The notes under the pieces were generated by a model. That model saw only the letters and a list, made by a program, of their open reading frames with translations. It searched no databases and had not been told where the DNA came from. The position numbers were made by a program, and so were the translations under genes. A stretch of 42,966 nucleotides of DNA from IMG/VR virus record IMGVR_UViG_3300045988_093752. One strand, given 5' to 3'. Source of the stretch: a virus. This document shows positions 478 to 32,175 of the stretch, one piece after another (the stretch's first letter is position 1; the number at the start of each line of letters is the position of its first letter).

Positions 478-1335
478 CTATTCAATCTCTGTCAATGGAC
501 CGGCTTTAACCCATACACCATTGATTCTGACGGTATCAGTTTGTAAATTAACCGCATCAACGCGTACACGATCAACATATACTACAGCATCCGTTGTATG
601 TAATACTTGGTCATTGTATCCATCTGAACCAGGAACCTTTGATACCATTGAGCATGGAAACCATCCACCTAATTGTTCTAGGTAGCAACATAAATCATCG
701 TTGATTTTCTTTAAGCCGACATTGCCAATTTTCATTTTGATTGAAGTTACCCAAGAACCTACATGAAGAATCTGATCAATAGCTTCTTTTGGTGCAGGCG
801 CAGGTGTACTTGGTACTGGCTTACCATCAAGTTTAGCATTTACTTCTTGAGCTAACTGATTCATTTTGCTATGTAAATAAGGCCCTGGACAAGATGTAGC
901 TGCGAACATTCTATGTTCTGTTAAGCTACCATTCGCATTACCAGTATAGCTTAATCTGAATCCGTATCGTTTACATACATCAACACATAGATTTACCAAT
1001 GCATTCCATGCTTTATCTGATACAGTCCAATTTGGAGCACAAGTTTCATTTGCAACCTCTACAGTAATAGCTTGACAATCGTTATAGTAATTCGATGAAG
1101 TCCATGCACGATTCTCTTCGTCAACATTCGCAACAATAGTACCATCTGAACCAATACAATAGTTAGCACTAGCCATTCGTCCACTTACTTGGAATGATTG
1201 AGCACATCTTTCTGCGGTCCATTGACAAGCCATGTGATGTACTGTAATTTTACAAACTTTAAAGCCGCCACGACCACGAGTGTAGTTGCTAGCAATTGCA
1301 GGAATATATTTATTCGCTAATTTAGAATATGACAT
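478..1335 (-). CDS. Endolysin: N-acetylmuramoyl-L-alanine amidase (Amidase_2/PGRP type) with C-terminal cell-wall-binding region
   Basis: Motifs KITVHHMA, SANYCIGSDG, AWTSSNYYND and AITVEVANE are typical of family-2 amidases. Last gene of the late operon, next to the holin. Confidence 0.85.
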   Translation of the reverse strand: MSYSKLANKYIPAIASNYTRGRGGFKVCKITVHHMACQWTAERCAQSFQVSGRMASANYCIGSDGTIVANVDEENRAWTSSNYYNDCQAITVEVANETCAPNWTVSDKAWNALVNLCVDVCKRYGFRLSYTGNANGSLTEHRMFAATSCPGPYLHSKMNQLAQEVNAKLDGKPVPSTPAPAPKEAIDQILHVGSWVTSIKMKIGNVGLKKINDDLCCYLEQLGGWFPCSMVSKVPGSDGYNDQVLHTTDAVVYVDRVRVDAVNLQTDTVRINGVWVKAGPLTEIE

Positions 1336-1841: not shown

Positions 1842-2111
1842 CTATTTTTCTTCTGTTTTGCCTTCAATAAAACGTGTGAAAGCTTGATGCATTCCAGTAC
1901 TAGCTAAACCCATCAAAGCGCCATACACTGCATTCTCGATTGACAAACCACTTACTGCTAAGTTTAGTACTAATCCAACAAATGCAAGCACTGTAGGAAT
2001 GTATTTATTTGGGAAACTTTCAAACGAAGTCTTTAAAATGTAGCCAACAATCAAGCAAGCCACAACAACAGCCAAAACAAAATATTTACTCAATTCTGCA
2101 AAATCAATCAT
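1842..2111 (-). CDS. Holin (putative)
   Basis: 89 aa with 2-3 hydrophobic helices (YFVLAVVVACLIVGYIL, IPTVLAFVGLVLNLAVSGL, VYGALMGLASTGM) and a charged C-terminus EGKTEEK. Upstream of the endolysin. Confidence 0.65.
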   Translation of the reverse strand: MIDFAELSKYFVLAVVVACLIVGYILKTSFESFPNKYIPTVLAFVGLVLNLAVSGLSIENAVYGALMGLASTGMHQAFTRFIEGKTEEK

Positions 2112-2123: not shown

Positions 2124-2372
2124 CTATAATTTAGTTACATTCAACATCACATAACCATCTTTGAATCCATCATTAGTCGTGATGCTTCTAATTTGTGTCA
2201 TTCTAAACAAACCTGTATCTGTTTCTTTTCCTTCGTCTAACGATACTTGTTTAAATAACACATAGTCTTGTTCATTGATTTGTTTATCCGTCAAATCAAG
2301 AATGATAAAGTCGTGTTCTTGGAAAAAATTCCATAATTTAGTATTTAAATTGATTTCATGTGTTTTAACCAT
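2124..2372 (-). CDS. Small DUF3850/ASCH-like protein (tentative)
   Basis: 82 aa; the pattern THEINL...DFIILD...DYVLFKQ...TGLFRMTQI...GYVMLNV resembles DUF3850. By-eye assignment only. Confidence 0.4.
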   Translation of the reverse strand: MVKTHEINLNTKLWNFFQEHDFIILDLTDKQINEQDYVLFKQVSLDEGKETDTGLFRMTQIRSITTNDGFKDGYVMLNVTKL

Positions 2373-2414
2373 ATAAAATCCTCCTATTAATATAAAAAAG
2401 CGAGGTAAACAAAA

Positions 2415-3308
2415 ATGCTATATTCTGACAAATTAACATCCTGGTTAAAGGAAAAGAAAATCTATCTAAAATACAGCACTTACACAAATTATTGTAATGT
2501 GATCCACAATCATATATTACCATCACTTGGCAATTACCAGATTGAAGAGCTGAACAACGATATTCTGCAGGAGTATATTCTTCAAAAACTTGAAAATGGT
2601 CGCAAAGACGGAAAAAGCGGTATTTCTTTTAAATACGCAAAAGACATTATTCAAATTCTTAAATTTACACTTCCGTTCAAAGTCGATATTCAACTTCCCT
2701 ATCATCCACCTAAGGCGGTTGAGATTTTTGAAAAAGAACATCAAATAACATTAATTAATCACCTCCAATCTGAAATAAATCACAAGAACTTTGGAATACT
2801 TTTATGCATCCATACAGGAATCCGTATCGGTGAGCTATGCGCTCTTAAATGGTCTGATATAAACACTCAAACCAAGCTATTAAACATAAGCAAAACTATG
2901 ATACGTACATACACAAAAGAAGATGGTAGTCACTTGTATGTGACCCCACCTAAATCACGCTCTAGCACCAGAATGATTCCATTGAATAATTGGATAATGC
3001 ACTACGCAATCCTTCTACAAGGTGATGCAGATAACTATGTATTAACGAATCGAGATAAGCCAATAGAGCCTAATAAATATAGACTTTACTATAATAGAGT
3101 TTTAAAAGAACTTGACCTACCACACCTTAAATTCCATGCACTTCGTCATACATTCGCAACGAGATGTATTGAATGTGGATGTGATTACAAATCATTGAGC
3201 GAATTACTCGGCCACTCCAACGTATCAATCACAATGAACATCTACGTGCATCCTCAAATGGAGTTAAAACGTAAATGTGTTGAATTGCTTTGTGATTACT
3301 ATAAATGA
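2415..3308 (+). CDS. Tyrosine site-specific recombinase (Xer/Rci-like), candidate tail-fibre invertase
   Basis: Catalytic signature GIRIGE (Arg), HALRHTFATR (HxxR) and LLGHSNVSITMNIYVH (His/Tyr). 297 aa, RBS GAGGT. One of only a few plus-strand genes, 24 bp upstream of fibre cassette 1. Confidence 0.85.
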   Translation: MLYSDKLTSWLKEKKIYLKYSTYTNYCNVIHNHILPSLGNYQIEELNNDILQEYILQKLENGRKDGKSGISFKYAKDIIQILKFTLPFKVDIQLPYHPPKAVEIFEKEHQITLINHLQSEINHKNFGILLCIHTGIRIGELCALKWSDINTQTKLLNISKTMIRTYTKEDGSHLYVTPPKSRSSTRMIPLNNWIMHYAILLQGDADNYVLTNRDKPIEPNKYRLYYNRVLKELDLPHLKFHALRHTFATRCIECGCDYKSLSELLGHSNVSITMNIYVHPQMELKRKCVELLCDYYK

Positions 3309-3330
3309 CCATATACCAATAGATGTAAAT

Positions 3331-3343
3331 GTATGTCCTTTGA
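3331..3343 (+). repeat. Putative crossover site 1: GTATGTCCTTTGA
   Basis: Matches the reverse complement of 4186-4198 at 11/13 positions and 3618-3630 at 10/13. Contains the ATG that opens cassette 1. Confidence 0.7.
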
Positions 3344-3617
3344 TACTTACACTGTAGGAGGTGAGTACCGGCATAAACTGACAATTGATGAATTACCATC
3401 TCATGCCCATAAGCCTCACGATTGGGATGTCATCACTGCTCAAGGTGGTAATACCGGATATTACAACATGACATATCTAAGTGATCGAACCGGAGTATTT
3501 AATCCTTTCACTTATGATTATGACAAAGATAGATATGGTTCATATGTCGGTAATAATGAGCCTCACTACAATGTACCTCCATACGTTGTCACATACTTTT
3601 GGCGTAGAATCGCATAG
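3333..3617 (+). CDS. Silent alternative tail-fibre C-terminal cassette 1 (tail-collar-type tip)
   Basis: MSFDTYTVGGEYRHKLTIDELPSHAHKP...PHYNVPPYVVTYFWRRIA parallels the last 94 aa of the fibre. No Shine-Dalgarno upstream; opposite strand to the fibre. Confidence 0.75.
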   Translation: MSFDTYTVGGEYRHKLTIDELPSHAHKPHDWDVITAQGGNTGYYNMTYLSDRTGVFNPFTYDYDKDRYGSYVGNNEPHYNVPPYVVTYFWRRIA

Positions 3618-3630
3618 GTATGTCATTTAC
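3618..3630 (+). repeat. Putative crossover site 2: GTATGTCATTTAC
   Basis: 12/13 match to the reverse complement of 4186-4198. Contains the ATG that opens cassette 2. Confidence 0.7.
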
Positions 3631-3919
3631 AACCTTTGGAGCAGGTGGCGAGTACAATCACAAATTGGACTGTTACGAGATGCCAAACCACTCACATAAC
3701 GAATATGCAATGATTGAAGGATATAGCGAATGGGATAGCTTTACCCCTATTCCCTATTCAATGTTGTTTAATTGGGGAAAAGGAGAATATCGTGACAGTG
3801 GAACATATCATGCTGCTAGAGTACCGTTAAACTCTGTCACTTCAGATGAAGGAGGAAGCCGAAGCCACAACAACATTCAACCTTATATCGTTGTTTATTT
3901 CTGGAGAAGAATTAACTAA
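3620..3919 (+). CDS. Silent alternative tail-fibre C-terminal cassette 2 (tail-collar-type tip)
   Basis: MSFTTFGAGGEYNHKLDCYEMPNHSHNE...SHNNIQPYIVVYFWRRIN. No Shine-Dalgarno. Its stop overlaps the fibre stop convergently (8-bp overlap, 3912-3919). Confidence 0.75.
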   Translation: MSFTTFGAGGEYNHKLDCYEMPNHSHNEYAMIEGYSEWDSFTPIPYSMLFNWGKGEYRDSGTYHAARVPLNSVTSDEGGSRSHNNIQPYIVVYFWRRIN

Positions 3920-5786
3920 TACGTTTCCAAAAATATACAGTAATGTATGGTTGTATATTATTATGCGATTTCCCACTTCCAACGTAGCCGGTTGGTTGTG
4001 GAACTGTAGACGAGCGCCCCCACGTTAAATTTGGTATTTTATATCCACCTTCATTTTTGTCTGTAAACGAACCGATTTCTCTTGTACTTCCATTGCCCAA
4101 GAAATATAAAGCTTCGGTATGATTGTGTTTTGGCATTTCAGCAATTTCTAAACTATGTACATATTCGCCACCATTAGAATTAGACGTAAAGGACATACTT
4201 GTACTACCATCATTTCCGGTCCCTTCACCAACCAAAGTTCGACCTTGCCCAAAGCGCTCCCAAGTGCCTCCTAAGAAGTTACCTGGATTGTTGTTGCCAT
4301 ATGTAATATAAACTGCACCAACTGGGAATATCTTATTCAAGAACACAGGAGCTACAATATCGCCTAATATAGTTAACGTGTCTTTTTGATTAGCATCTTG
4401 ACCGAAGAAAGTTAATGATCGTCCGTCTTTTCCAAAGTTAATTAAAGTGTAAGTTGGAGTTACAGTAAATATATTCCATGAATAATCATTCATGAATTTA
4501 TCCTTAACACCGAACGCAACCTCATAAGTAGCCGTTGTTGAAGTAAATAAATTACCTGCCTTGTAGTCTTGTTCAAGAGTATAGTTGTTATCCCATGAGT
4601 TTATTTTCGTCCACGAACTAGCACCACTTACTCGATATTGAATATAGAATGATGTAACATTCTTACCACTCAAACTTGTAAAGCCAACTTTGAAGTGTAA
4701 CAACGCATATGTTCCACTTGCTTCATCAATCACATAACTAGAATTAGCACGTTTAGCACTGATGTTGGTCATGCTTGGACTAGAATACGGAACTACTGCA
4801 ACCGAACCACTTTTAGAAGCAGTTCTACCACGTGAGTCTGTAACTGTTGTTGTATAGTTGATTGTTCCACTTGCATAGATTGTTGAAGTGGTAAAGTTGC
4901 TACCAATGTAATCTGCCGAATTGAACCGAGTTGATATAGACGAGATACTTGAACCTTGACTACCACTAGCACTAATTGCAAACTTTAATGCCGATTGACT
5001 CTGTACGATTTGTCCAATTCCTGCACAAATTGAATTTGTATCTGAAATTGAGATTGTACCAATACTAGGAACAACACCACTTCTAACTTTGATAGTCGCA
5101 TTTACCGACTTAGAACCAACGGATGTTGAACCACTGAATGTTTCTAAAGTAAATGTTGCGATACCACTTGTTGAGTTTGGTAAGTTCTTTTCCCAATCTG
5201 TAGGAATGGTATAAGAAAAGCTAGGGGATGTTGTTCCACTAGCTATTGTTCCTAAATATGTCGTTGTTCCGTTCCATGTTACATAAACTTTATGCGAGAA
5301 GTTACTTGATGCACTTGTACCACTGATTGTGATTGTATTACCACAATCTAAACTTGGCTTATTTATTGATGGTGTTGTTGCTCTTGGTATAGTTGTTAAA
5401 TTAACCGTTCCACTACAACTACCACTTCGAGGTGAGTAATATTGCGTGTTGCTACAACTAAATGATGCACTAACACTGATTGATTTAGAACCATCTGCAT
5501 TATGTGTAACTGTTATGTAACCATCCTTTACACCTAAAGTTTGTCCTTTCCCACAAGTAAGTGTGAAGTCCTTGTCAAGAACTGTTGTTCCATTTACAAC
5601 AACTTTGAAATGTTGCGGAACACTATTAAATGAATGATATTGTGTGTTAGAACGAATGCCAACCCACCAATAAACACGAGAAGTATTGTTTTCGATTGAG
5701 TAAGAATCTTCCCAACATTTTAGTATAAGAGAATATTTATTCTCATCACCTGCCGTGATTCGTATACTGCCACTAAATTCTGCCAT
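3912..5786 (-). CDS. Tail fibre / receptor-binding protein with C-terminal phage-tail-collar-type domain
   Basis: 624 aa, Ser/Thr/Gly-rich beta-type body. C-terminus PVGAVYITYG...GGTWERFGQGRTLVG...GGEYVHSLEIAEMPKHNHTE...SHNNIQPYITVYFWKRIS fits the collar (MdpB-like) pattern. Directly follows Tal. Confidence 0.8.
   Translation of the reverse strand: MAEFSGSIRITAGDENKYSLILKCWEDSYSIENNTSRVYWWVGIRSNTQYHSFNSVPQHFKVVVNGTTVLDKDFTLTCGKGQTLGVKDGYITVTHNADGSKSISVSASFSCSNTQYYSPRSGSCSGTVNLTTIPRATTPSINKPSLDCGNTITISGTSASSNFSHKVYVTWNGTTTYLGTIASGTTSPSFSYTIPTDWEKNLPNSTSGIATFTLETFSGSTSVGSKSVNATIKVRSGVVPSIGTISISDTNSICAGIGQIVQSQSALKFAISASGSQGSSISSISTRFNSADYIGSNFTTSTIYASGTINYTTTVTDSRGRTASKSGSVAVVPYSSPSMTNISAKRANSSYVIDEASGTYALLHFKVGFTSLSGKNVTSFYIQYRVSGASSWTKINSWDNNYTLEQDYKAGNLFTSTTATYEVAFGVKDKFMNDYSWNIFTVTPTYTLINFGKDGRSLTFFGQDANQKDTLTILGDIVAPVFLNKIFPVGAVYITYGNNNPGNFLGGTWERFGQGRTLVGEGTGNDGSTSMSFTSNSNGGEYVHSLEIAEMPKHNHTEALYFLGNGSTREIGSFTDKNEGGYKIPNLTWGRSSTVPQPTGYVGSGKSHNNIQPYITVYFWKRIS
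4186..4198 (-). repeat. Putative crossover site in the fibre gene: GTATGTCCTTTAC on the minus strand
   Basis: Plus strand reads gtaaaggacatac. Covers the fibre codons S-M-S-F. Inverted relative to the sites at 3331 and 3618. Confidence 0.7.
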
Positions 5787-5790
5787 TCAA

Positions 5791-8700
5791 TCACCCTACT
5801 TTCTTGAAGTCCAATGAACCATTTGCTCTTGGCACGAATCCAAATGCACCAACTTTTAAAGACTGCGTAAATTGACCGTCTGTAATGTACATTGTTTGAT
5901 CGTTTATATATGTTACCTTTGCACCATTCTTTTGAATCGACCATTCTTGGTTTGTAATCTTAGTTTTAAATGCACTGTCTGATTTACCTAAAGTTAATCC
6001 ATCATTATTAAAGCTCATGTAATTATTTACGTTGTCTGTGGTTTGCTTCAAGCCATCTAATCTTCCATTTACACTATTAATCTGACCGTTTAATTCGTTC
6101 TTTGCATCTGAAACATTCTGACTGATTTCCCATTTGAACTCACTCTTCGTCTGAGTAAACTGACTTGATACAGTATTTTGATAATGCTCAAATGCCGAAT
6201 TTGATACATAAGTTTCAGAAACCTTTGAAGTAATTTCATTTGCCTTAGTTTCAATTGCAGACTGTCGCTCAGTACGTTCAGTGTTTATTGCTTCATCTAC
6301 ATCTTCTGGAGCAGGAGTCCAGTCTGTTGCTTTGTTACCTTTTTCAAGTTTGAAATTACTCAAGATGATATTTGATGCAGTAGATGGCCGTCCTGTAAGA
6401 TCATCAATAATAAACTCCGTCCCTGGCAATATATCATTATTCGGGGTTCCAGTAGCATAACATCGTCCATTCTTATTTATGTATAATTGCCATGTCGCAT
6501 TTTGAACAGTTACTCCAAAAGACCAATTGCATCCACTCGGTACATTCGAAGCATCACATGATATAGTGTATATCTCTCCTTTAATTAGCTTTTGATATGC
6601 TTTCAAGTAGAAATATGTATCATCTACTCCTGTACCAACCTTTATTGATAAATCATCTATTTTGGTTATCTGGCCACCAGCTCGTATATATTGCATTAAT
6701 AAATTACGCCCACCAATTTGTAAGTTATCAATCTTATTACTAGTTTCAGTAATCGAAGTAGCTTGTAATTTAATCGCATTTGCATTTTGTTCAATTTTAG
6801 TTGTATTTGAAGAAACTTTGTTTGTTAGTTCTGCGAGTTCTTTCTGAGCTTGTTCTGCTTTAGCTTTTGCATCATCCGCCACTCCTTGAGCTGTCTTTGC
6901 ATTGCTGATTGCCGTAGTTGCGTTGCCTTGAGCCTTAGTTGCATCAGATTGAGCTTTCTCCACTGCAGTTTCTGCGTTTGTTAAACGAGTTTGAGCTTTT
7001 GTGATTTCGCTCTCAGTCGCATCAACTCTACCAGTCACTGATTCTAGATTAGCTTTTGCATCCGCTAATTCCTTGTTAGCATTGTCTAAATTTAATTGAG
7101 CACTGTCTGCCTTTTGTTTAGCTTCATCTGCTAATGACTGAGCACTCTGTGCATTTGTAATTGCTTGACTAGCAGTTGATTGTGCTTGCGTTGCCTTTTT
7201 TGTTGCTTCAGTAATATCTAACTGAGCTTGAGTTGTATCTGATTGCAATCTTTCAATTGAACTTGCTTGAGTTGATATTGTATCTGCAGTTTGTTGAAAC
7301 TTCGTGTTCATACTTCCTTCAAGTGTTGTTAAATCACTCTTAGAAGCATAATTTTGAGAAACTGTAGTCGACAGTTCACCGACTTTCTCTTCGATTTCAG
7401 TTGTTACCTCTGCATGAATAGATTTTGATTCAGTAGTTAAATCAACTTTTGTAGCATACGTTTCTTTTACAGTAGCAATTTCTCCTGCATTGGCATTTGC
7501 CTTATCAACTGCATCTTGAATCTGTTGCTTTGAATCATTGATATCCCCTTTAATCGCATCAATCTGTTTCTGAGCGTTACCAGTACTAGTATTTGCTTCT
7601 TGTGCTAGTTGCTTAGCTTCACTTGATTGAGTGTTAGCAGTATTAGCTAATTCATTCGCTTTTGTTGCATCTGCCTGAGCTTGTGTTGCCTTATCAACTG
7701 CTTCTTTTGATTGAGTATTTGCTACTGATACTTGAGTGTGAATCTCACCAATCTTTGCATCAATTTCATTCCATGTGTTATCAAAAATAGCTTTCGTATA
7801 TTTGATTTCACTCGGATTAGCATACGTACACTTCCAACGTTTCCATAGGAACTTATCACTTTGATAAACCACATTACCAACGAACCATTCACCACCGATT
7901 AATTCGGTTTGAGATGTAGAATAATAGAATTGTTCCTCGGCACTCACAAATGACTGACCATCTTCACCTTTGATTGCACTCCATCTGTACTTAGTTGGGT
8001 CTTCAGAACCATACTGCTTTGAATCAGAATACTGACCAATAAATTTACGATTTGAATCTGTCAAACTAAAATCAACTCGCCCATCTGAACTATTGGCATA
8101 GGCAATATGTACATATGCGCTTGTTCCATTCTGACCGTCTTGTAGTCGCATTACAGTGACTTCTGCAGTGGCTTTTAGTATTTCACCGCTCATCGCTTTA
8201 AATCGGTATACAGCCTTTTCTGTGAAGTCTGAAGCATTGACTGTGATTGTTTGGCTTGTTGATATTTGCTCATCATCCTTGAACCATGTAATTGAATACT
8301 TAGATGTAATATCAACCCCAGCATCCTTTACCAATGCAGTCAATTTAGTGCTATCTGAATCATTTTTAAAAAGAACCCCATTTGAAGATACAATCGAGCC
8401 TTCATAAACTTTCTTTAACTCAATCATCTTGTTCATTTCACTGATCAGAGCTGAACTTATCTGTGATTGCTTTTCTTCAAAGTTATCAAAGATTGTCTTG
8501 CACTTCTCGGAATCCGTAAAGCAAATCTCCTGTTCTGTAATTCGTGCTTCTAAATATAAAGTAGGACTATACTCCGCATCTTCGATTGTAAATGTATCAC
8601 CGATATCTGCATCAATATATGCATCCACATCATATGTAACTTTAGGAACACAATTCTTTTTTAATTCTGCTAAAGCTTGTCCATATAATACCTCTACATT

Positions 8701-9576
8701 ATCGGTGTCGTAACTCCATATCTTAGCAATATACATATCATTATTGTGATTTGTGATTAATGTACTAGGAAACCTATCTCTGGCTTGTGGAGCTAACAAA
8801 TTGTTGCCGCCAACTTTGTACAGCACATTACCATTTGAGTCTTTAACCACTCGACCACTGATTGAATTTAACTGTAATCCGTTCCTACCGGTTGGCCTTA
8901 TCGCAGTATACAATTCAGTAATATCACTTGTTTTAGTGATTCCGTAAATATTATTAGGATATCTTAAGATCGTACTGCGTTTATCTGTTCCCATTCCTTG
9001 AGCACTATCTGAATGAGCACGATAAACATTCAATACAACTCTTTTCAATGAATAATCATCATTCAATTGAGTTACAAACTCTAATTCTGCGTCAAATACA
9101 TTTGCGATTGAATACAATCGAGCCAGAACTGTATCATCACCGGTCCATTCATGTGTGATTCGTTTATCTGATACTTCATTTTTGCCGATAACAAATGATT
9201 GTTCAAATCCAAACGCATTTACATATTCCGCAAATGACATAGCTCTAGGAGCTTTATATTCACCTACATATTCATTTGTCAATTCTAGGCAAAGACCATA
9301 GGCAGTGACTTTTGTTTCGTCACCGCCCTTTTCAACATTCATGATTGTTAAATAATATCCTTTGTTTTTTCTTATAAAGCTCAGTTTATTTCCTTCAACT
9401 AAAAAGGCTGCATCATTATGTGCAGTCAATGTAGTAAATTCAAATGTATACGATGAGCCTTTTAAATAAGTATGCAATGTTTCATCGAAGTAATGCATTG
9501 CGCTAGGCACAGTATTGTCTAGAAAAGCTAACACCTTATCGTAAGGAGTTAATACTGCTATTCTTATAAATTCCAT
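5791..9576 (-). CDS. Tail-associated (Tal / prophage tail endopeptidase-type) baseplate protein with long coiled coil and CBM-like module
   Basis: About 1260 aa after Dit. Likely start is ATG at 9576 (GGGAGG 10 nt upstream, TAATG coupling with the Dit stop). Ala/Gln-rich coiled coil at ~6720-7760; GGRNLL...KLEKGNKATDWTPAPED module at ~6300-6720. Confidence 0.75.
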   Translation of the reverse strand: MEFIRIAVLTPYDKVLAFLDNTVPSAMHYFDETLHTYLKGSSYTFEFTTLTAHNDAAFLVEGNKLSFIRKNKGYYLTIMNVEKGGDETKVTAYGLCLELTNEYVGEYKAPRAMSFAEYVNAFGFEQSFVIGKNEVSDKRITHEWTGDDTVLARLYSIANVFDAELEFVTQLNDDYSLKRVVLNVYRAHSDSAQGMGTDKRSTILRYPNNIYGITKTSDITELYTAIRPTGRNGLQLNSISGRVVKDSNGNVLYKVGGNNLLAPQARDRFPSTLITNHNNDMYIAKIWSYDTDNVEVLYGQALAELKKNCVPKVTYDVDAYIDADIGDTFTIEDAEYSPTLYLEARITEQEICFTDSEKCKTIFDNFEEKQSQISSALISEMNKMIELKKVYEGSIVSSNGVLFKNDSDSTKLTALVKDAGVDITSKYSITWFKDDEQISTSQTITVNASDFTEKAVYRFKAMSGEILKATAEVTVMRLQDGQNGTSAYVHIAYANSSDGRVDFSLTDSNRKFIGQYSDSKQYGSEDPTKYRWSAIKGEDGQSFVSAEEQFYYSTSQTELIGGEWFVGNVVYQSDKFLWKRWKCTYANPSEIKYTKAIFDNTWNEIDAKIGEIHTQVSVANTQSKEAVDKATQAQADATKANELANTANTQSSEAKQLAQEANTSTGNAQKQIDAIKGDINDSKQQIQDAVDKANANAGEIATVKETYATKVDLTTESKSIHAEVTTEIEEKVGELSTTVSQNYASKSDLTTLEGSMNTKFQQTADTISTQASSIERLQSDTTQAQLDITEATKKATQAQSTASQAITNAQSAQSLADEAKQKADSAQLNLDNANKELADAKANLESVTGRVDATESEITKAQTRLTNAETAVEKAQSDATKAQGNATTAISNAKTAQGVADDAKAKAEQAQKELAELTNKVSSNTTKIEQNANAIKLQATSITETSNKIDNLQIGGRNLLMQYIRAGGQITKIDDLSIKVGTGVDDTYFYLKAYQKLIKGEIYTISCDASNVPSGCNWSFGVTVQNATWQLYINKNGRCYATGTPNNDILPGTEFIIDDLTGRPSTASNIILSNFKLEKGNKATDWTPAPEDVDEAINTERTERQSAIETKANEITSKVSETYVSNSAFEHYQNTVSSQFTQTKSEFKWEISQNVSDAKNELNGQINSVNGRLDGLKQTTDNVNNYMSFNNDGLTLGKSDSAFKTKITNQEWSIQKNGAKVTYINDQTMYITDGQFTQSLKVGAFGFVPRANGSLDFKKVG

Positions 9577-11099
9577 TACAACCATGCCTCCCTAATTCTA
9601 GCTTTTATCGTTGGCTTTGATTCCGTCCAACTTGAACAAGTAAGCTTTACTTCCGTCTCACCTACTGGTGCTTTGAAATATTTAGTTCCCAACACCTCAT
9701 CTTGAGGTCTAGACATTCCATTTACATAAACATGAGATGATTCACCATCAATTGTAATCTTAGTGCCACTTGGATATCTATTAGGAATATCTCTCCATTT
9801 TGTTACGTTATTTTTGAAGAAGTTGATAACATTGAAACCTAACATATTCAACATCTGGTTGCCACTACGATTACCCCATTGTTTAAATGCAACTTGAATC
9901 TTAGCACACTCCATATCAGCAATTTCCGGAATGTAATAATTGTAGTATTTACCATAGTAGAAGAATCTGATGTTTCCACCCTCTTTTAACACATCGCAGT
10001 GCCCCCAGTTCCAGTACCAAGGATTTTGGCTGTTCAAATGTGATGATGTATATTTCCATTGCTTTAAAGTTTTGCCATTTGCCCATATGTCATAATGAGC
10101 GCTGTTACCAACCGCATCCGTCTTATGCCAGTTACAACCACAGATTAATTTATTATCTGCAGTTAAAAAGTTAATACACATTTCACCGGTTTGACCCATA
10201 AGACTTGCCCAAAGCAACACATGAAAGTAGCAATAAAAGTTCTTTGCACCTTTTTTACCAGTTGAATCTGCAGGAAGAACAAATGTTCTTAATCCACCAT
10301 TCGCATTTCCTTTTTTATTTCCAACAGTTCCAAAGCCAAGAAACTTTGTGTTAAACCATGTATGTTGAGCACAAGTACCATTAGCACCATACTGTGGATG
10401 CATATACTCAGTACCATTTACATCGTCCGGACAATTGAAAAAGTCATTAATGCTAGCTAGTTGTTCACTCTGTTGATATGTTTCAGAATCTAATTCTTCA
10501 ATCTTTCCGTACTGCATAACTCCTTCAGTTGATACGATACCAATATATCCAGTTTCAGATGTTGTCTGAACTTCATAATCAATACTTACCGGTACAGTTC
10601 CCTCATTTACAATATTTAATACTCCATCAGTATCGGTAAATTCTTTTTCAGTTGTTGAATACTTGCGTGGGTCAGAACAATAGATTTCGATTTCACCGAT
10701 CACGTTATTACTTCCGCCATCAACTTGTGTATTTGAAGTTTTTGTTCCAATAAAATACTTGTTACTTTCATCGTTAAAAATGACTTTTACTTGCTCACCA
10801 CTCAACAATTTATTCATCTTATTGTAAGCTTCTCGAAATTCTCTGCTTCCTCTAGCTCTCAACTGGTACCTAACAGTAATTGTTCTTGCAGGAGTTGTTT
10901 TATATCTGTAATAAGAACCATCCATTCCATCAATTTCAGTATGTGTTACTTCTGATTCCATCAACTCACGTCCTGTTACAGAAAGTGTACGATATCCATC
11001 TATTTCATTTTCTAAATATACACCATTATATGACATGGCTTCTGTCGGTAGGTTAGTACCGACGATGCCACTATTTACAGTATTTACGAACGCATACAT
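9576..11099 (-). CDS. Distal tail protein (Dit), enlarged 'evolved' form
   Basis: Position directly after the tape measure. N-terminus MYAFVNTVNSG...SYNGVYLENEIDGYRTLSVTGRE is typical of siphovirus Dit. 507 aa, longer than I recall for classical Dit proteins. Confidence 0.7.
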   Translation of the reverse strand: MYAFVNTVNSGIVGTNLPTEAMSYNGVYLENEIDGYRTLSVTGRELMESEVTHTEIDGMDGSYYRYKTTPARTITVRYQLRARGSREFREAYNKMNKLLSGEQVKVIFNDESNKYFIGTKTSNTQVDGGSNNVIGEIEIYCSDPRKYSTTEKEFTDTDGVLNIVNEGTVPVSIDYEVQTTSETGYIGIVSTEGVMQYGKIEELDSETYQQSEQLASINDFFNCPDDVNGTEYMHPQYGANGTCAQHTWFNTKFLGFGTVGNKKGNANGGLRTFVLPADSTGKKGAKNFYCYFHVLLWASLMGQTGEMCINFLTADNKLICGCNWHKTDAVGNSAHYDIWANGKTLKQWKYTSSHLNSQNPWYWNWGHCDVLKEGGNIRFFYYGKYYNYYIPEIADMECAKIQVAFKQWGNRSGNQMLNMLGFNVINFFKNNVTKWRDIPNRYPSGTKITIDGESSHVYVNGMSRPQDEVLGTKYFKAPVGETEVKLTCSSWTESKPTIKARIREAWL

Positions 11100-14000
11100 T
11101 ATCTGTTACCTCGCAATCTCTCATTGAATTTTGAATGTTTGTTAATCTCATTCTGATTTGCTCTGTATGTTGCACGTGCGAACTCTCTGTCATTGATATA
11201 AAGTGGTGCTTCAACAGTTAATTGAGCGTTGCTAGTGTAATCGTATTCTGCATTCATATCACTCACAACACCTCCAAAAGCCATTTTAGGAGTGTTCATC
11301 ATTGGAAGATATAATAATTCCTCCGCCGCTTTTTTTGCTTGAGGAACCATTCCTAGAATACCATTACAGAAGCCTTTTCCAATCCACATACCATCTTTTT
11401 TAGTAACTTTAGATGGAGAACCGATTTTAGCCTTTGCTTGGATTGCAGCATCTGCAGCTGCTGCTAAACTAGCGGCCGCTGCTCTAACAGAACCTTCACT
11501 AGCTCTTAAACCATTTGCCAATCCTTGACCAATCATACGACCACAGTATTCTGCTCGTGATTGACATGCATTGAATGCACTGATAATGCTATTGCATGAA
11601 GATCTTGCAACAGACACACCTTTTGAAAGTCCACCTTTTAAGCCACTCGTAAAGTTGGTTCCCATTGCAGTTCCTGAAGTAGTAGCTTTTGCCTCTGCAT
11701 TTGTTAATGCACTTGTAATCATTGACATACTGCTCACAACAACACTAGATGCACTTGTAAATGCTCCGCTGATTAATGATGCTACTGTAACGAGTGCCGC
11801 CATACTTGCAGATGTTGCCATTACTGAACTTGCTACAGGTGCAATAGCTCCTGCAAATGCAGTCATAGCTCCACTTGCAACTGTTAATGGTTCTGAAATT
11901 CCGCTTAATGAGCTTAAAGCATCTGATAATAATGGAATCGTCGCAGATAACGATTCGATACCTGCTTGCGTTGCAACAATCATTGTTAGCGCAGTTGCCA
12001 ATGTCATCATTTGAGCACCTACATCACCTAAACCGCTTGATGCGGTTGCAATGGCACCAACTCCTGTTGCTACTGCAGCTAAACTTGCACCTATATCAAA
12101 TAAATTCAAACTAGTAATGATTTGGATTCCTTTTGCTAATTCCTTGAATCCTTTACCTGCATTCAATGCCGATTGACCAATCGAATCAATCACACCTGCT
12201 AATGAATCTAAAATACCACTTACTGCATCACCAAATGATGTAATCACATCTGAAATTCCATCGAACACTGTTTTAATAACATCGCCAAACGATTGCAATG
12301 TATTACAAATTCCTTCAAAGGTTGTCTGAATCACAGGTCCCAATGCAGTTACGACTGTGCCAACACCTTCAAGGATCGCTTGCATTCCTTCTCCTTGAGA
12401 AGCAACCAACGCCATAGCAACACCAACTGCTAGAATTGCAACCGATAATGCCAACCATGTAGTTGGCGGTACTAATGCAATTGCAGTTCCTAAACCTGTA
12501 AATGCAGTTGCCAATCCTTGTCCGATTCCTTGTGCTACTGTACTGATTGCAGTACCGAATGATTCAATGACTGTACCGACCCCTTCCAAAGCCGATTTAA
12601 TGCCTTGCCCGATACCTTGAAATGCAGTACTAATAGCTTCTCCTAAACCTGTGATGATTCCCTTTACACCTTCACATACTGAAGAAATAACATTTGAAAT
12701 CCCTTCAAATGCGGATTTTATAATCTGTGCTGCTTTAGATGTTTTATATGCGGTTTTCATTGTGGTATCACCAATACCATCACTTGGAGTTTGATTTTGT
12801 GGTAATTGTCCAGGTATTTCTTGAGTTGGTTCTTTTCCTAAACCTTTGATTTTATCAATGATTGATTTTAGTTTTGAATATCCGCCTTTCGCAGAGCCAA
12901 CAACTCCACTAATTGTGCTAGAAACTTTGCTACCTACTTTGATACCAACAAATGCTCCTGCCAACAATTTAATTGCACCTGCAAACTTCTTAACATCTTC
13001 TGTTTTAAGATTTGCTATAAAATCTGCGATTTTTCCTGTTACTTCTGATACTTTAGATACAATATTTCCAATATCTTGACCTAACTGTTCAAAGACTTTA
13101 CTGTCTTGCAACTTATCCATTACATTTCCAATAGCATCTTTGATTTTATCGAACATCGTGATTGCGTTTTGTACTGCATCTGTTTTCATGAATCCGTCAT
13201 AGAATTGTTGGATCATAGCTTTAGCATTGTTTGCTCTGTCAGCCAACCAATCCATAGCCTTTGATACATTTTCCATGACTTCTGGTTTAAAGTCCCATGT
13301 CAAACCATCGTCCTTAGTTTCCATAATTGAATTTCTGAAATCATAGATTTTTGATTTAATCTTTTCTAGATTATCAACTAATCCACCCATAGCTTTCGAT
13401 TTCATCATATTGTCCATAGCCGACATAAAGCCTTGTTCAAGGTTCTGTACCGCACTCTTGATGTTAGTCATGGATGTTTTAACACCTTTAGAAGCTTCTA
13501 ATGCAGTTTCTGCAAATCCACCTGTTTCAGTATCACATTCAATCATTGCATCATTGAATTGGTCGAATGTAATCGTTCCATTCTTTAAGGCCTCATATAA
13601 TTCATTTGCATCTCCGCTCGCAATACCTAGTTTCTTAGATACTTTAGTCAATGCAGGTGCCATTGTTTCCTGCAGTGTTCGCCATGATTGCATATCTACT
13701 GACCCTTTAGCGAGCATCTGTGAATACTGTTGTAAGCCACGTGATGCATCTTCGGAACTAGATCCACTTGCTAAAAACGCATGGTTCAATGCGATTGTAG
13801 TATCAGTTGCCTTATCAATATTACCTGTAACGGCAGCCAACGACTTAGATGTTGTTACTACATCCGCCAAACTCGTTGGTAAGCCTTGTACTGATTGATT
13901 TAATTTCGCAACACTCCTTTGAGATTGCTCAACTGAGAATCCCAAAGACTTCATTACTTTTGGATAGGATTGCATGGTATCAAATCTTGTGATAGCACCA

Positions 14001-14182
14001 TCCATGGATGAGCTAAGAACGTTCATTGTTGCGCCAATAGCTTTTGTTATGCCGACACCTGCCACAATAGATTTAACTCTATCGCCAAATGATTCGCACG
14101 CTCCTAAAGCTTTTTTCATTGTAGACGTCATGTTTTTGTCGGTTGCCGACAATATAGCTTCAACGCTAAAACTTTCTGCCAT
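11099..14182 (-). CDS. Tape measure protein
   Basis: 1027 aa, largely helical with Gly/Ala-rich hydrophobic repeats. Located after the chaperone pair and before Dit. Confidence 0.85.
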   Translation of the reverse strand: MAESFSVEAILSATDKNMTSTMKKALGACESFGDRVKSIVAGVGITKAIGATMNVLSSSMDGAITRFDTMQSYPKVMKSLGFSVEQSQRSVAKLNQSVQGLPTSLADVVTTSKSLAAVTGNIDKATDTTIALNHAFLASGSSSEDASRGLQQYSQMLAKGSVDMQSWRTLQETMAPALTKVSKKLGIASGDANELYEALKNGTITFDQFNDAMIECDTETGGFAETALEASKGVKTSMTNIKSAVQNLEQGFMSAMDNMMKSKAMGGLVDNLEKIKSKIYDFRNSIMETKDDGLTWDFKPEVMENVSKAMDWLADRANNAKAMIQQFYDGFMKTDAVQNAITMFDKIKDAIGNVMDKLQDSKVFEQLGQDIGNIVSKVSEVTGKIADFIANLKTEDVKKFAGAIKLLAGAFVGIKVGSKVSSTISGVVGSAKGGYSKLKSIIDKIKGLGKEPTQEIPGQLPQNQTPSDGIGDTTMKTAYKTSKAAQIIKSAFEGISNVISSVCEGVKGIITGLGEAISTAFQGIGQGIKSALEGVGTVIESFGTAISTVAQGIGQGLATAFTGLGTAIALVPPTTWLALSVAILAVGVAMALVASQGEGMQAILEGVGTVVTALGPVIQTTFEGICNTLQSFGDVIKTVFDGISDVITSFGDAVSGILDSLAGVIDSIGQSALNAGKGFKELAKGIQIITSLNLFDIGASLAAVATGVGAIATASSGLGDVGAQMMTLATALTMIVATQAGIESLSATIPLLSDALSSLSGISEPLTVASGAMTAFAGAIAPVASSVMATSASMAALVTVASLISGAFTSASSVVVSSMSMITSALTNAEAKATTSGTAMGTNFTSGLKGGLSKGVSVARSSCNSIISAFNACQSRAEYCGRMIGQGLANGLRASEGSVRAAAASLAAAADAAIQAKAKIGSPSKVTKKDGMWIGKGFCNGILGMVPQAKKAAEELLYLPMMNTPKMAFGGVVSDMNAEYDYTSNAQLTVEAPLYINDREFARATYRANQNEINKHSKFNERLRGNR

Positions 14183-19905: not shown

Positions 19906-21585
19906 TTACCTCCTTAATTTAATTTCTACTAATCGTTTGATTTCTTTTGATATTTCATGAGCGTTATCACCATTTATAAAACAATCACTAAAAGCTTCTG
20001 CCATAGTTTCTGAATAACTTTCGGATGCATATCCTGAAATATCTTCAATCAATACATTTAATCTTTTCCCTTTAATTATACCTTTTGCTTGGAGATTATT
20101 AAAGGCTTCTAAGACTACTTTTCCAGATTCATTACAGTTGTTCCATGCATTTTCCTTTTGCAATGTATTTTTATAATTAATATTCCTATTCAAAAATACA
20201 AATTCTAAAACGTGTGCAGCTTCATGCACCATATCGCTTTCAATTGTTGTCCCCTTCATCCAATACCCTATATTTACCTGCTCTTTTATAAGGTTTCTAT
20301 AGGCGTCGGGGTCTTTAAAAAGCTTAGGATTTAAGCTAATGTCATTTTTACTTGGTCTAAACACCATTGCTCCATTATCTGAAGTTGCTATACGCTTTAC
20401 ATATTTATTGATTTCCGGATATTGATTTAGCATGTTTCTTAAGCTTTTAAGTGATCTTGAAACACTTGAGTAATTAAGCTCTTTTACAGACTCGTCTATC
20501 TCAATATTAAAATCATTCTTCCATTCTGTGGATAAATCGGCATAACGCTTATCGTTTGATGCTTCCGTGAGTTTACTTTTTACCTTTGACATTAAAAAGC
20601 CTTTGCTTTTATCTGATTGCCTTTCTTTCCACTCATCAAACCTTAAACTATGTTCTCCATTTGCTAGGCCATCTAGCCATTTTTCATACTCCTTACAATC
20701 TGAATATGGTGCCGTTGCACAGTGACAATTTGGATGCATAGGTGGAGCGTTTTCTCCTATTTCCATGTCTTTAAGCTTGAATGTTTTGCCATCCATTTCT
20801 TTACATAATGGACACACGTCTTTTAATCCGCACGCAATATATTCATACTCATCTATTCCGTTTGATTCGTAAGATTCTGCCTGTGCTTGTGTTTGAACTC
20901 GCGCAATTTCTGTTCGCAACAATCTTTCTGCATTGCATCTTGATACATCGAATTTCTTTCGTATCTGAGGGATAAACTCTCTTGGATTCTTACCTTGAAT
21001 CAATGCACTGGATAGAACACTGGATAAACTGTTTTTTAGCTGGTCTTGATTTACCCAAATTCGTTCTGAAAAGGTTGCGTTCTTAAAAGATGAATCTGCT
21101 ACTGTTTTGGCCATCTTCGCATTGTCAATCACTGTATCACCTAAGATAGAAGCATTACGTTTGAGTTCTTCTAAATAGGCTCCTTCCAGTTTATCACCAG
21201 TATACGACTTCAATTCGTCATGGCCTGCCACAAGTTCTAATCCAATGTTTGCTTTTAAAAGCTCCAATCGGTTGACTTTCATTGCTAAGTTATAAAGTCT
21301 CATCTGTTCATTGGCTTCATCTGAAAAGTTCTTTTCCTTTACATACTTCTTAGCTTTTCTTTGATATGCTTGGATATCTATGTTAGAAACTCTCTTTTTG
21401 GCTTCTGCCATAGTGATGTTTTCTTTATTGGCATAGCGAGTAAAAAAGGATTCGATTTCCTTTTCAACCGAATCCATCATGTTTGCATATATTTCTTGTA
21501 TCTCATCCGCATATTGCTTTTCATCTTTTAAGCGTTTCTTTTTCCATTCAAGCTCACGATCTCGCCAATATGTTTTACTGCTCAT
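19906..21585 (-). CDS. Minor head protein (SPP1 gp7 / Mu F family) fused to a C-terminal HExxH metallopeptidase-like domain
   Basis: MuF core RLLRTEIARVQTQAQ...CPLCKEMDGKTF...PPMHPNCHCATAP. The C-terminal ~260 aa contain MVHEAAHVLEF and a downstream ETMAEAFSD. Start at 21585 or 21603 is uncertain. Confidence 0.75.
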   Translation of the reverse strand: MSSKTYWRDRELEWKKKRLKDEKQYADEIQEIYANMMDSVEKEIESFFTRYANKENITMAEAKKRVSNIDIQAYQRKAKKYVKEKNFSDEANEQMRLYNLAMKVNRLELLKANIGLELVAGHDELKSYTGDKLEGAYLEELKRNASILGDTVIDNAKMAKTVADSSFKNATFSERIWVNQDQLKNSLSSVLSSALIQGKNPREFIPQIRKKFDVSRCNAERLLRTEIARVQTQAQAESYESNGIDEYEYIACGLKDVCPLCKEMDGKTFKLKDMEIGENAPPMHPNCHCATAPYSDCKEYEKWLDGLANGEHSLRFDEWKERQSDKSKGFLMSKVKSKLTEASNDKRYADLSTEWKNDFNIEIDESVKELNYSSVSRSLKSLRNMLNQYPEINKYVKRIATSDNGAMVFRPSKNDISLNPKLFKDPDAYRNLIKEQVNIGYWMKGTTIESDMVHEAAHVLEFVFLNRNINYKNTLQKENAWNNCNESGKVVLEAFNNLQAKGIIKGKRLNVLIEDISGYASESYSETMAEAFSDCFINGDNAHEISKEIKRLVEIKLRR

Positions 21586-22933
21586 CGTTTTGTGAATCCT
21601 CATTATTTTGGAAGATTCGGTTTTCAGTTTCTACCATATCATTCTCATCTTCCTTTTTGATACGTTCCATTTCGGCATTCGTATCTTCAACTGCCGAGAT
21701 AAACGACAATTGAGTTTCGTGAGACACGATTCCTGATAATTGTGCAGCAGTCTGTGCTTCTTCTAATAAGTTTGCAGGATAATTTTGTGTAAACTTGTAT
21801 TCAACCTCAAGCCAGTCATTCTCAGAACGATGTGTGATCGCATTACTAAATAAGACTCGATATCTACGATTCATTCCAGATGTGAACTTACGCTCTTTCG
21901 CTTTTGCTAGGTTTGACATAGAAAGAAGTTTATATCTCAATGCAATACCTGAAGTCGTTCCAAAGTTCTCATCATTGATATTGGCCACCATTGAGTTTTG
22001 GAAGATTAAACGTTCTAATCTGTTAATTAGATTTTCCTGTGTTGCATCTGCATTAGGTTTTGACATGAAATCAACTACAATTCCATCACCACTTCCATCC
22101 ATTGACTCAAAGTTAATTGTTCGATTATCTCGAATGTGTACCAAATCTGACTCTTCTAATTTAGGACCTAAGATTTTTAAATAGGCATCTGCAAAGTAAT
22201 CAACATCATTTGCTTTTTCTGACATTGCCTTGTTATAGGCATTAATCAAACTGTATGTTGATTCAAAAATAGACATACGTTCTTCATTTTCAATAAATTC
22301 AGTGGCCGGAATATCATTGAATCCATGCTCTACGCCATTAAATACATGAAGACCGCCTTTATCATTGAACTCATACTTATATGTTTTGTCATAGATATAC
22401 CCACGCATAACCTCGTCTACAATCTGATATGTTACGAAATATCTAGGTTTCTGCACTGTTGATTCATCATAAACCATGAAGCCTTCTCTTGGATCTAAAT
22501 AAGTGATTCCTAAATTTCCATAATCATCATTGAAATACAATTCATATCCTTTTCCAAAAACACTACAAATCTTAGATAGTTCTGCATTGTTGTCGTCCTG
22601 ATCATTGTATTTATCTAGCAAGTTGATATAATCATCAATTTCTTTGTTCTTAGAAGATACTTTGATTGGAACCCCAATAAAAAAACCGTTGAATGTGTCA
22701 ACAATGTATTTCGCAAAGTTGACCACAACACGGTTATCGGGTTTATAGGTTTCTTTATTGGCTTGATGCAAGATTGGATAATCTCCAATATAGGCATCAT
22801 AAAGCTTTTTATATCTGCTTGTTATTAATGTTTTATGACTTGTTATCAATCCATTCAACACTTCAATGTTAAGGATGTCTTTATCGTCAGATAGCTTAAA
22901 TATCGTATCCGGTTTAATAATGTATGCGTTCAT
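21575..22933 (-). CDS. Portal protein (SPP1 gp6-like)
   Basis: 452 aa between terL and the MuF gene, with an acidic C-terminal tail. Confidence 0.8.
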   Translation of the reverse strand: MNAYIIKPDTIFKLSDDKDILNIEVLNGLITSHKTLITSRYKKLYDAYIGDYPILHQANKETYKPDNRVVVNFAKYIVDTFNGFFIGVPIKVSSKNKEIDDYINLLDKYNDQDDNNAELSKICSVFGKGYELYFNDDYGNLGITYLDPREGFMVYDESTVQKPRYFVTYQIVDEVMRGYIYDKTYKYEFNDKGGLHVFNGVEHGFNDIPATEFIENEERMSIFESTYSLINAYNKAMSEKANDVDYFADAYLKILGPKLEESDLVHIRDNRTINFESMDGSGDGIVVDFMSKPNADATQENLINRLERLIFQNSMVANINDENFGTTSGIALRYKLLSMSNLAKAKERKFTSGMNRRYRVLFSNAITHRSENDWLEVEYKFTQNYPANLLEEAQTAAQLSGIVSHETQLSFISAVEDTNAEMERIKKEDENDMVETENRIFQNNEDSQNDEQ

Positions 22934-23688: not shown

Positions 23689-23689
23689 G

Positions 23690-24595: not shown

Positions 24596-25105
24596 GTTGA
24601 ATGTAATCATCCACTGTTTCCAAAGATGTGGTGGTAACTCACCACGAATTGACTCATCTAGGGTATCAAAGTCTTTTTCACTTGTTATCTCATAGGCTTC
24701 TTCAAGCCATGCCCAACACAAATATCCATACTCAACAGTAATAGATGTTACTTTTAATGGATCGTCGAGTCCTCTAAAGAGAATCTTTTGCCCAGTTGGA
24801 AGATATGTTGCCTCCAAAGGCGAATATTTAAATTCCCATAAGTGTTCAACCTCTAGTCTCCTTGTTGCCCATTTTAAATCCGTGAAACACGAATCTTTAA
24901 GCGTTCGATAAGTCTTACGCACAACTAATGTATTCGATTTATCGTATTTCATCATGTTGTATATGATGCGTAATGCAGTTGTTTTTGACTTCTTAGAAGC
25001 ACGAGAACCTTTGCATGCAGCATAACGTCCTCTGAAATTCCAATAGGATTTATATCCTTTCCCTACTATTTTAGGTAACTTAATAGTTTTAGTCTTCAAG
25101 ATCAT
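24590..25105 (-). CDS. terL: Terminase large subunit, exon 1 (N-terminal ATPase half)
   Basis: Walker A-like ACKGSRASKKSKT, then LFRGLDDP and WLEEAYE (Walker B-like), ending ...WMITFNP followed by an in-frame stop at the intron. Overlaps the terS end. Confidence 0.8.
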   Translation of the reverse strand: MILKTKTIKLPKIVGKGYKSYWNFRGRYAACKGSRASKKSKTTALRIIYNMMKYDKSNTLVVRKTYRTLKDSCFTDLKWATRRLEVEHLWEFKYSPLEATYLPTGQKILFRGLDDPLKVTSITVEYGYLCWAWLEEAYEITSEKDFDTLDESIRGELPPHLWKQWMITFNP

Positions 25106-25586: not shown

Positions 25587-25753
25587 AGAATTCCTCCTCT
25601 CTTGCGTAAAAAAAGCCAAGACATCTGTCTTGACATAATTTCTTATGATATTAGTTTACCACTTATTCAAGTACACAGTGTGCACCAATATAATAAAAGC
25701 CCATTTACCGGCTATATATATGGACTTATTCTTTATATATAATATTATTCTAA

Positions 25754-32171: not shown

Positions 32172-32175
32172 AGGC

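Follow-up and report, generated by a model that had tools for sequence, protein, structure and literature searches.

Among the described multiple-inversion switches, or shufflons, the closest to the locus considered here is the Rin shufflon of Bifidobacterium prophages, reported in 2018 as the first in which a phage-encoded tyrosine invertase acts on cassettes for the C-terminus of a receptor-binding protein (RBP); its site, rix, is the 11-bp sequence TTCCCTAACCC (PMC6109161). The Rin shufflon was later reported in Eggerthella lenta prophages as well (PMC8778435). The sfx sites of R64 have a 7-bp core with a conserved right arm and a variable left arm, and an extra C-terminal domain of the Rci recombinase is thought to enforce inversion only (PMC11852207). 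A three-isoform shufflon driven by Gin is found in Enterobacter phage FR-phi (PMC13418256), and BV01-like phages of Phocaeicola vulgatus carry a tail-fibre shufflon of which all configurations have been detected in reads (PMC13596623). The locus described here lies in the IMG/VR record IMGVR_UViG_3300045988_093752, a stretch of 42,966 nucleotides (hereafter the window) that constitutes a complete temperate siphophage genome. It comprises a tyrosine recombinase gene, two silent cassettes and the 3' end of a tail fibre gene, and is very probably a shufflon of a temperate siphophage of Holdemanella or related Erysipelotrichaceae.

In the proposed mechanism, the 297-residue recombinase would act on sites of approximately 21 bp, one located within the fibre gene and one at the 5' end of each promoterless cassette (Table 1). 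Strand exchange would take place in the asymmetric 7-bp centre of the site, GTATGTC, and the ATG within this heptamer would become an internal methionine of the fibre. As this ATG is in frame at the exchange, each event would fuse the constant 530 residues in frame to a new tip of about 95 residues. The three sites of the window would thus allow four reachable arrangements and three fibre variants. The current state would express the third tip; recombination of site 2 with the fibre site would install cassette 2, and recombination of site 1 with the fibre site would install cassette 1.

The three sites of the window

A first-pass annotation, made from the letters of the window, had marked three copies of a 13-bp core as predicted crossover points, and all three are present at the positions and on the strands assigned to them (Table 1). 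The pattern GTATGTCNTTTRM has three exact matches in the 42,966 bases, whereas dinucleotide-preserving shuffles contain 0.02 on average and one at most. The ATG is in frame in every copy, as had been proposed: it opens a 94-residue open reading frame (ORF), a 99-residue ORF and the last 94 residues of the fibre. Identity among the three copies is 10-12/13 within the core and falls on either side of it, as the annotation had noted, to 8-13/30 on the left and 14-17/30 on the right. The nine bases directly upstream of the core, said to agree at six positions between cassette 1 and the fibre gene, agree at five.

That the three 13-mers are a chance or compositional coincidence has next to no probability. 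The window is AT-rich, which is all that speaks for such an origin; it is already refuted by the three copies observed against 0.02 expected, and by the recurrence of the core at approximately 170 sites in some 60 loci. A further 13-mer with one mismatch (CTATGTCATTTGC, 9230-9242, minus strand), located in the gene for a 1264-residue tail protein, was considered as a site and rejected. It lacks the invariant G at +1 (positions are counted from the first base of the heptamer), encodes ...YMSF... and is probably a coding coincidence. A coincidence of the same kind is present in the related locus L022.

The fibre gene and its cassettes

The fibre matches Pfam DUF859 in its N-terminal region (5e-39) and Gp10_C in its C-terminal domain (2e-24), and is assigned to tail protein in PHROG. 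The C-terminal domain also matches the solved structure of the T4 gp10 C-terminal domain (PDB 2fkk, 5e-9). Both cassettes and the expressed tip match Gp10_C at profile positions ~55-139, the cassettes at no others, and the crossover therefore lies inside the domain, between ...GNDGSTS and MSFT.... The ends of the cassettes encode the conserved motifs GGEYxH... and ...QPYIxVYFWRR. The cassette 2 and fibre ORFs converge and overlap by 8 bp at their stop codons (3912-3919), so that no sequence is left to spare in the invertible segment. Inspection by eye showed no Shine-Dalgarno sequence ahead of the cassettes of the window, and a promoter and terminator scan found no enrichment near the recombinase gene or the cassettes.

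Tips of all three types occur in related loci. A tip of the cassette 1 type is in the expressed position in L004. The cassette 2 type is expressed in L068 and silent in L067, L069 and L070, and the expressed tip of the window has a 95% identical silent counterpart, a 94-residue cassette adjoining the fibre gene, in L065 and L066. When cassette 2 and the expressed tip were used as protein queries, all matches were ORFs of cassette size and none was a full-length fibre, a result that says nothing on expression, as clustering at 90% hides variants that differ in the tip alone and the window's own fibre was missed too.

Related loci and their arrangements

The first-pass annotation had proposed a search for the same locus in alternative orientations, and inversions bounded by the core are indeed found among the approximately 65 related loci recovered, which belong to gut phages of Holdemanella and other Erysipelotrichaceae. 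With the recombinase as query, IMG/VR gave 52 loci at 65-96% protein identity, and a scan of genomes gave relatives in Holdemanella (93%), Floccifex (75%), and further Erysipelotrichaceae and Firmicutes (62-68%). A blastn search with positions 2300-6000 of the window against 50,697 phage records gave no match, and there is no close sequenced isolate among them.

Loci have two to eight sites with the core GTATG(T/A)C-N-TTTAC. The first is on the plus strand throughout and lies 7-25 bp past the stop codon of the recombinase gene in every intact locus; the last is always on the minus strand within the fibre gene, and internal sites occur in either orientation. The commonest arrangement is that of the window, ++- (14 loci), followed by +- (six), +-+- and +-- (four each), and +++- and +++-+- (three each); a few loci have other arrangements with up to eight sites. 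The four +-- loci (L018, L031, L040 and L049) have the arrangement predicted as the product of an outer inversion.

The contig ends at most 1.5 kb downstream of the recombinase gene in 9 of the 52 viral contigs and in 4/5 genome contigs with close relatives. Such ends are far commoner than expected for contigs of 20-40 kb, which fits assemblies breaking at a heterogeneous shufflon. Contigs ending near the recombinase are L014, L017, L019, L020, L030, L035, L038, L039, L042 and L053-L056.

Rearrangements between relatives

When cassettes are clustered at 90% DNA identity and each locus is written as a signed list, the same cassettes recur in different orders and orientations. L011 (+17,-8) and L026 (+8,-17) have collinear flanks of ~91% identity around 586 bp inverted core to core, and L016 and L003 differ by an inner inversion whose segment is 98.5% identical between them. 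In L006 (+4,+0,-1) and L049 (+1,-0,-4), everything from the first site to the fibre site is inverted. Closest to the window, L068 1160-1740 corresponds to L069 4483-3903 inverted, at 91.4% and again core to core, between collinear flanks (recombinase 89%, fibre 87%). In L068 the tip of the cassette 2 type follows the fibre junction, at which ...GGTAGTACAA meets GTATGTC, and is thus expressed; in L069 and L070, which are 92-98% identical to the window and came from a metagenome scan with the start of cassette 2, cassette 2 is silent. Positions 3866-4198 of the window also match L065 in inverted orientation at 93%, with flanks matching at ~80%. Exact junction patterns for cassette 2 of the window had no match in IMG/VR; the later metagenome scan gave three contigs, L068 included.

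These comparisons bear out the placement of the exchange points at the cores, since the inverted segments of L068/L069, L011/L026 and L016/L003 run exactly from core to core. They also agree with the topology that had been proposed. The geometry of the inner inversion (site 2 with the fibre site) is correct and the event is seen for the cassette 2 type in L068 and L069, and the outer inversion (site 1 with the fibre site), predicted to place the middle site and the fibre site in direct orientation, is realized in L006 and L049. The outer inversion was not seen for the window's own cassette 1.

In L020, the 3' end of the recombinase gene is present twice in inverted orientation (4400-4508 and 5194-5302, 96/96 bp identical). 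The heptamer joins each copy to a cassette of its own, and +8 is the only position at which the copies differ. A self-comparison of all loci for inverted duplications returned only this case, which suggests either two isomers in one sample or an assembly fold-back.

Anatomy of the site

In order to avoid circularity, 138 candidate cassette starts were located by protein features alone; four of these are mis-registered and 134 are true starts. GTATG(T/A)C is present at all 134. At the cassette start, phenylalanine is encoded by TTT throughout and in no case by TTC, the GT preceding the ATG does not vary even in non-coding contexts, and A occupies -2 in 134 of the 138 candidates. Positions +12 and +13 are conserved at 92-99%, with A at +12 in 92% of the starts and C at +13 in 97%. 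The consensus of -7 to -2, AGTAAA, is an inverted repeat of TTTACT at +9 to +14. The functional site is thus predicted to span approximately 21 bp, AGTAAA-n-GTATGTC-n-TTTACT (AGTAAAnGTATGTCnTTTACT), with a non-palindromic centre that would give it direction. The 13-bp core taken as the site in the first-pass annotation was correctly located, but alignment of the related sites indicates a longer functional unit of ~21 bp, within which the crossover core would be 7 bp.

Whether the arms are asymmetric, as in R64, had been singled out as worth testing, and they are. The right arm is near-invariant and agrees with the consensus at 5.2-5.7 of six positions in every context. The left arm scores 5.2/6 at recombinase-proximal sites and 5/6 at fibre sites (AGTACA in 40/40), but is degenerate at internal sites, with 3.6/6 after a cassette stop codon and 3.8/6 in head-to-head spacers. 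The two anchor sites are therefore nearly symmetric. In the window, the fibre site matches the consensus at 5/6 in both arms, and site 2 at 3/6 in the left arm, which overlaps the end and stop codon of cassette 1, and 5/6 in the right. Site 1 matches at 5/6 on the left and 4/6 on the right, where it is off at +12 and +13, the two best-conserved arm positions. Its right arm (TTTGA) is the most deviant of the family; similar deviance is found elsewhere only at the first site of L065 and L066 (TTTAG), and the deviant site is identical in the closest relatives of the window, L069 and L070.

Limits of exchange

Position +6 of the heptamer is T at every site of 38 multi-site loci and A at every site of nine loci, seven of which are multi-site. 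None of these 47 loci is truly mixed, against a permutation mean of 19. L004 had been taken for a locus with mixed heptamers, but the match responsible is spurious and lies in an unrelated upstream ORF that is no cassette. The recombinases of the A-type loci are 93-94% identical to T-type ones. That +6 changes in concert despite nearly identical recombinases implies that the heptamer must match between partners and is not read by protein specificity, and the concerted change would be the signature of the overlap region of a tyrosine recombinase.

The left limit of exchange is sharp and falls between -1 and +1. The base at -1 goes with the left flank (96% same, 30% baseline), and in 37 pairs with cassette bodies at least 97% identical and different left contexts, identity is 0.32 at -1 and 1.0 from +1 to +7. 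The right side is different. The base at +8 varies within 39 of 48 loci, shows no homogenisation within them (0.34 vs 0.335), and is partly linked to either flank, at 52% for the right and 43% for the left over a baseline of 32%. An earlier placement of the right limit exactly between +7 and +8 was dropped, as a stricter test showed +8 to be only partly linked. Linkage to the cassette body is 0.59 at +8 and rises to 0.82 over +14 to +20, 0.91 over +21 to +30, and at least 0.95 beyond +40. In the most recent events, +8 went with the cassette (L065/L066, both L016/L003 junctions and the two L020 junctions). Our conclusion is that exchange begins at the heptamer's left edge and that the right side is scrambled by gene conversion or junction migration. 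Conceivable, though unusual, would be an initial strand exchange at a set position after which the junction migrates into the homologous start of the cassette; this would fit the pattern. The exact points of cleavage are inferred.

The mosaic character of the first ~30 bp of the cassettes, with their graded linkage to the body, could also be read as a sign that the cassettes are relics of duplicated fibre 3' ends that exchange by homologous recombination or gene conversion, the 13-mer being kept for the peptide S-M-S-F-T. The conserved motifs at the cassette ends could support homologous exchange, and cassettes are common to diverged backbones. However, breakpoints fall exactly at the cores, where identity spans only 13-21 bp and is at baseline by -1. 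Synonymous and non-coding positions are fixed (TTT never TTC, and the GT and the A at -2 upstream of the ATG). In addition, +6 changes in concert across whole loci, and a dedicated recombinase gene is always adjacent. We therefore regard this explanation as very unlikely.

The recombinase

The predicted shufflon recombinase has the Pfam domains Phage_integrase (4e-29) and Phage_int_SAM_3 (5e-12) only, with no arm-binding domain, and its closest solved structure is Tn1549 Int (1e-17). Sequence motifs point to R137, K180, H241, R244, H267 and Y277 as candidate catalytic residues, and the protein ends only 20 residues past Tyr277. It adjoins the cassette array in the 52 viral loci from IMG/VR. 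The window encodes a second, distinct integrase of 359 residues, and no serine recombinase (resolvase) domain was found among the 32 ORFs of the window that were scanned. A tblastn search of 72,556 plasmids with the recombinase gave 739 records, with Escherichia and Salmonella absent from the ten commonest genera. The genera of these plasmids are indirect evidence that the enzyme has no specific similarity to Rci of IncI plasmids.

Relatives of the recombinase at 37-41% identity occur in Bacteroidales in inversion-type contexts, which fits an invertase lineage. In one of these (L060 4170-6694), a homologue of 37% identity lies between inverted copies of a 245-residue outer-membrane-protein-like gene with 107-nt inverted repeats; this is probably another inversion switch, operated by a recombinase of that lineage. 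Three loci of the closer family have truncated recombinase genes (L044, L050 and L051, with residues 1-216, 1-153 and 1-68) and one or two sites each. They look like decayed, locked forms of the switch.

These three loci could instead be taken to mean that the sites are used by a host or other trans-acting invertase and that the adjacent enzyme is, for example, a second integrase or a Xer-like resolvase. Invertases acting in trans are known, Mpi of Bacteroides being one, and an inverted locus that lacks a recombinase has been reported in bifidophages (PMC6109161). The loci with truncated recombinases have the fewest sites of all, however, as expected of decayed switches. Moreover, all intact loci have their first site 7-25 bp from the end of the recombinase gene, at 62-96% protein identity and across several host genera, the phage has a separate, longer integrase, and the Bacteroidales relatives are in inversion-type contexts too. 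An invertase acting from elsewhere is thus most unlikely, and the adjacent recombinase is the preferred candidate.

Direct sites, deletion and cassette sharing

The risk of losing a cassette by deletion had been attributed to the state that follows the outer inversion. It is not peculiar to that state: every reachable arrangement has one direct pair of sites, at present sites 1 and 2. L066 equals L065 (99.98% over 5,290 bp) minus 597 bp (L065 4402-4999, corresponding to L066 296); both are phages from gut metagenomes. The missing segment is a module of two cassettes with an 18-bp head-to-head spacer, located between two direct sites, and at the L066 junction the left flank of one site runs through GTATGTC into position +8 and the right-hand flank of its partner. 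Either site-specific deletion or the insertion of a circle thus takes place in nature. Tandem direct sites nevertheless persist in most loci, which suggests an inversion bias or selection for keeping cassettes.

Cassettes common to loci have a median identity of 95%, compared with 89% for the recombinase gene and 86% for the constant region of the fibre, in a set of pairs that is biased by having been chosen for a shared cassette. Backbones whose fibre genes have 56% identity carry one cassette in common at 89%. From these comparisons, tips appear to move horizontally between phage lineages. The larger loci are repeated modules separated by 18-bp spacers. It is conceivable, though rather doubtful, that the sites also work in an integron-like manner, with two-cassette modules of ~600 bp excised as circles and re-inserted, possibly into co-infecting relatives. 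These repeats, the module lost or gained in L065/L066 and the cassettes that are more alike than their surroundings would fit such a reading. If so, the family would share a mobile pool of fibre tips.

Points against an active switch

Several observations weigh against the interpretation of the locus as a working shufflon with three interchangeable tips. The right limit of exchange is not sharp but graded over ~30 bp. Site 1 may be a poor substrate, its activity being uncertain, and cassette 1 was not seen in another position in the closest relatives of the window. Switching within a population has L020 as its sole hint, and frequent switching there is something that we infer. The adjacent recombinase is the presumed catalyst, and the expected change of host range upon a swap of tips is likewise presumed.

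Genome context

The features of the window are given in Table 1. The large terminase gene (22933-25117, minus strand) is split, with the N-terminal part of Terminase_3 at 24590-25117 and the C-terminal part plus Terminase_3C at 22933-23688. An ORF for a GIY-YIG and helix-turn-helix (HTH) endonuclease (23842-24450) lies between the two, and the interruption looks like an intron or other homing-endonuclease insertion. Rfam had no match at the gathering threshold anywhere in the window. Between the repressor-like gene and the integrase gene, 40357-41316 (plus strand) encodes a protein with DUF3644 and an EC042_2821 restriction-endonuclease-like domain, which may be a defence or moron gene.

Table 1. 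Sites, cassettes, invertible segments and other genes of the 42,966-base window.
Feature	Position	Strand	Description
Amidase	478-1335		
Holin	1842-2111		
Shufflon recombinase (predicted)	2415-3308	+	297-aa tyrosine recombinase; strand opposite late genes
Site 1, 13-mer	3331-3343	+	GTATGTCCTTTGA
Site 1, full 21 bp (predicted)	3324-3344	+	TGTAAA-t-GTATGTC-c-TTTGAT; adjoins recombinase gene
Silent cassette 1	3333-3617	+	94 aa; C-terminal part of Gp10_C domain
Site 2, 13-mer	3618-3630	+	GTATGTCATTTAC
Site 2, full 21 bp (predicted)	3611-3631	+	CGCATA-g-GTATGTC-a-TTTACA; internal
Silent cassette 2	3620-3919	+	99 aa; Gp10_C
Fibre site, 13-mer	4186-4198	-	GTATGTCCTTTAC
Fibre site, full 21 bp (predicted)	4185-4205	-	AGTACA-a-GTATGTC-c-TTTACG; within fibre ORF, between ...STS and MSFT...
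Expressed tip	3912-4196	-	Last 94 aa of fibre, core ATG to stop; Gp10_C
Inner invertible segment (site 2 x fibre site)	3631-4185		Two convergent cassette bodies
Outer invertible segment (site 1 x fibre site)	3344-4185		Homologous event: L006 vs L049
Tail fibre / receptor-binding protein gene	3912-5786	-	624 aa; constant part, residues 1-530
1264-aa host-specificity protein	5791-9585		
Dit	9576-11099		
Tape measure	11099-14182		
Portal	21575-22933		
Terminase	22933-25619		
SSB, RecT, YqaJ	31662-35894		
HTH repressor-like gene	39964-40344		
359-aa integrase	41755-42834		

Significance

Tail-fibre tips decide which bacteria a phage can infect, and shufflons of this family, which may have as many as eight sites in a locus, are common in the phages of human-gut Erysipelotrichaceae. 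Host range would therefore be a property of the population and not a fixed trait, provided that the presumed effect of the tips holds. The switch probably also breaks short-read assemblies. It is compact and well defined: the recombinase has 297 residues, and the site spans ~21 bp, its 7-bp centre occurring in two interchangeable forms (T or A at +6). Together with Rci/sfx, it could thus be considered as an orthogonal tool for programmable shuffling of DNA, and it may offer a natural way to test the control of inversion versus deletion by site asymmetry.

Comparison with known systems

The switches of Gin (Mu), Cin (P1), Min (p15B) and FR-phi resemble this locus in that inversion swaps the C-terminal part of a fibre, with several isoforms in Min and FR-phi. 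They depend, however, on a serine recombinase with a 2-bp crossover and on an enhancer and Fis, whereas the enzyme here is a tyrosine recombinase; the gene adjacent to the sites encodes a member of the Phage_integrase family, which sets the locus apart from the serine invertases (Gin/Cin/Min/Pin). The BV01-like phages share with it a multi-cassette shufflon, flanked by a recombinase gene and overlapping the tail-fibre gene of a gut phage at its distal end. They differ in the motif (TGGGAGAACT with extensions of 14-18 bp), in host phylum and in fibre type, and the inversion there shifts the stop codon, whereas complete homologous tips are swapped here.

R64 is closer in the form of its site. 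In both systems a tyrosine recombinase acts on a 7-bp core with a conserved right arm and a variable left arm, and multiple inversions swap the C-terminus of a recognition protein. The arms here are ~6-7 bp instead of 12, the site has an unrelated sequence, and both anchor sites come close to symmetry. The extra C-terminal domain of Rci has no counterpart in the enzyme here, which stops shortly after its tyrosine, so that the locus agrees with the R64 type in site design but not in the Rci-family domain. Deletion or insertion between direct sites, as in L065/L066, may be a further difference, and the target in R64 is a pilin (the PilV adhesin) where here it is a phage fibre.

The likeness to Rin is the most extensive. 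In both, a tyrosine recombinase without an arm-binding domain flanks promoterless cassettes for an RBP C-terminus, the gene with the constant N-terminal part lies on the opposite side, a short asymmetric repeat stands at the 5' end of each cassette, and relatives differ by multiple inversions. The same question of how deletion between direct sites is avoided arises for both. The hosts differ, being Actinomycetota for Rin and Bacillota (Erysipelotrichaceae) here, and so do the sites, the 11-bp rix for Rin and here a 21-bp site (AGTAAAnGTATGTCnTTTACT) whose GTATGTC centre holds the cassette ATG. The receptor-binding fold in Rin phages is a TP901-1-like head and that of the fibre here a T4 gp10 C-terminal-like domain. 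No description of a shufflon family from Erysipelotrichaceae phages was found in the searchable literature, and the kind of switch is already known from other phages. The locus has the features of a tyrosine-invertase RBP shufflon: promoterless cassettes homologous to the fibre 3' end, a single type of short oriented site, present within the expressed gene and at the 5' end of all cassettes, and alternative arrangements between relatives with breakpoints at these sites. These features support the placement of the Erysipelotrichaceae-phage family as a further tyrosine-invertase tail-fibre shufflon like Rin.

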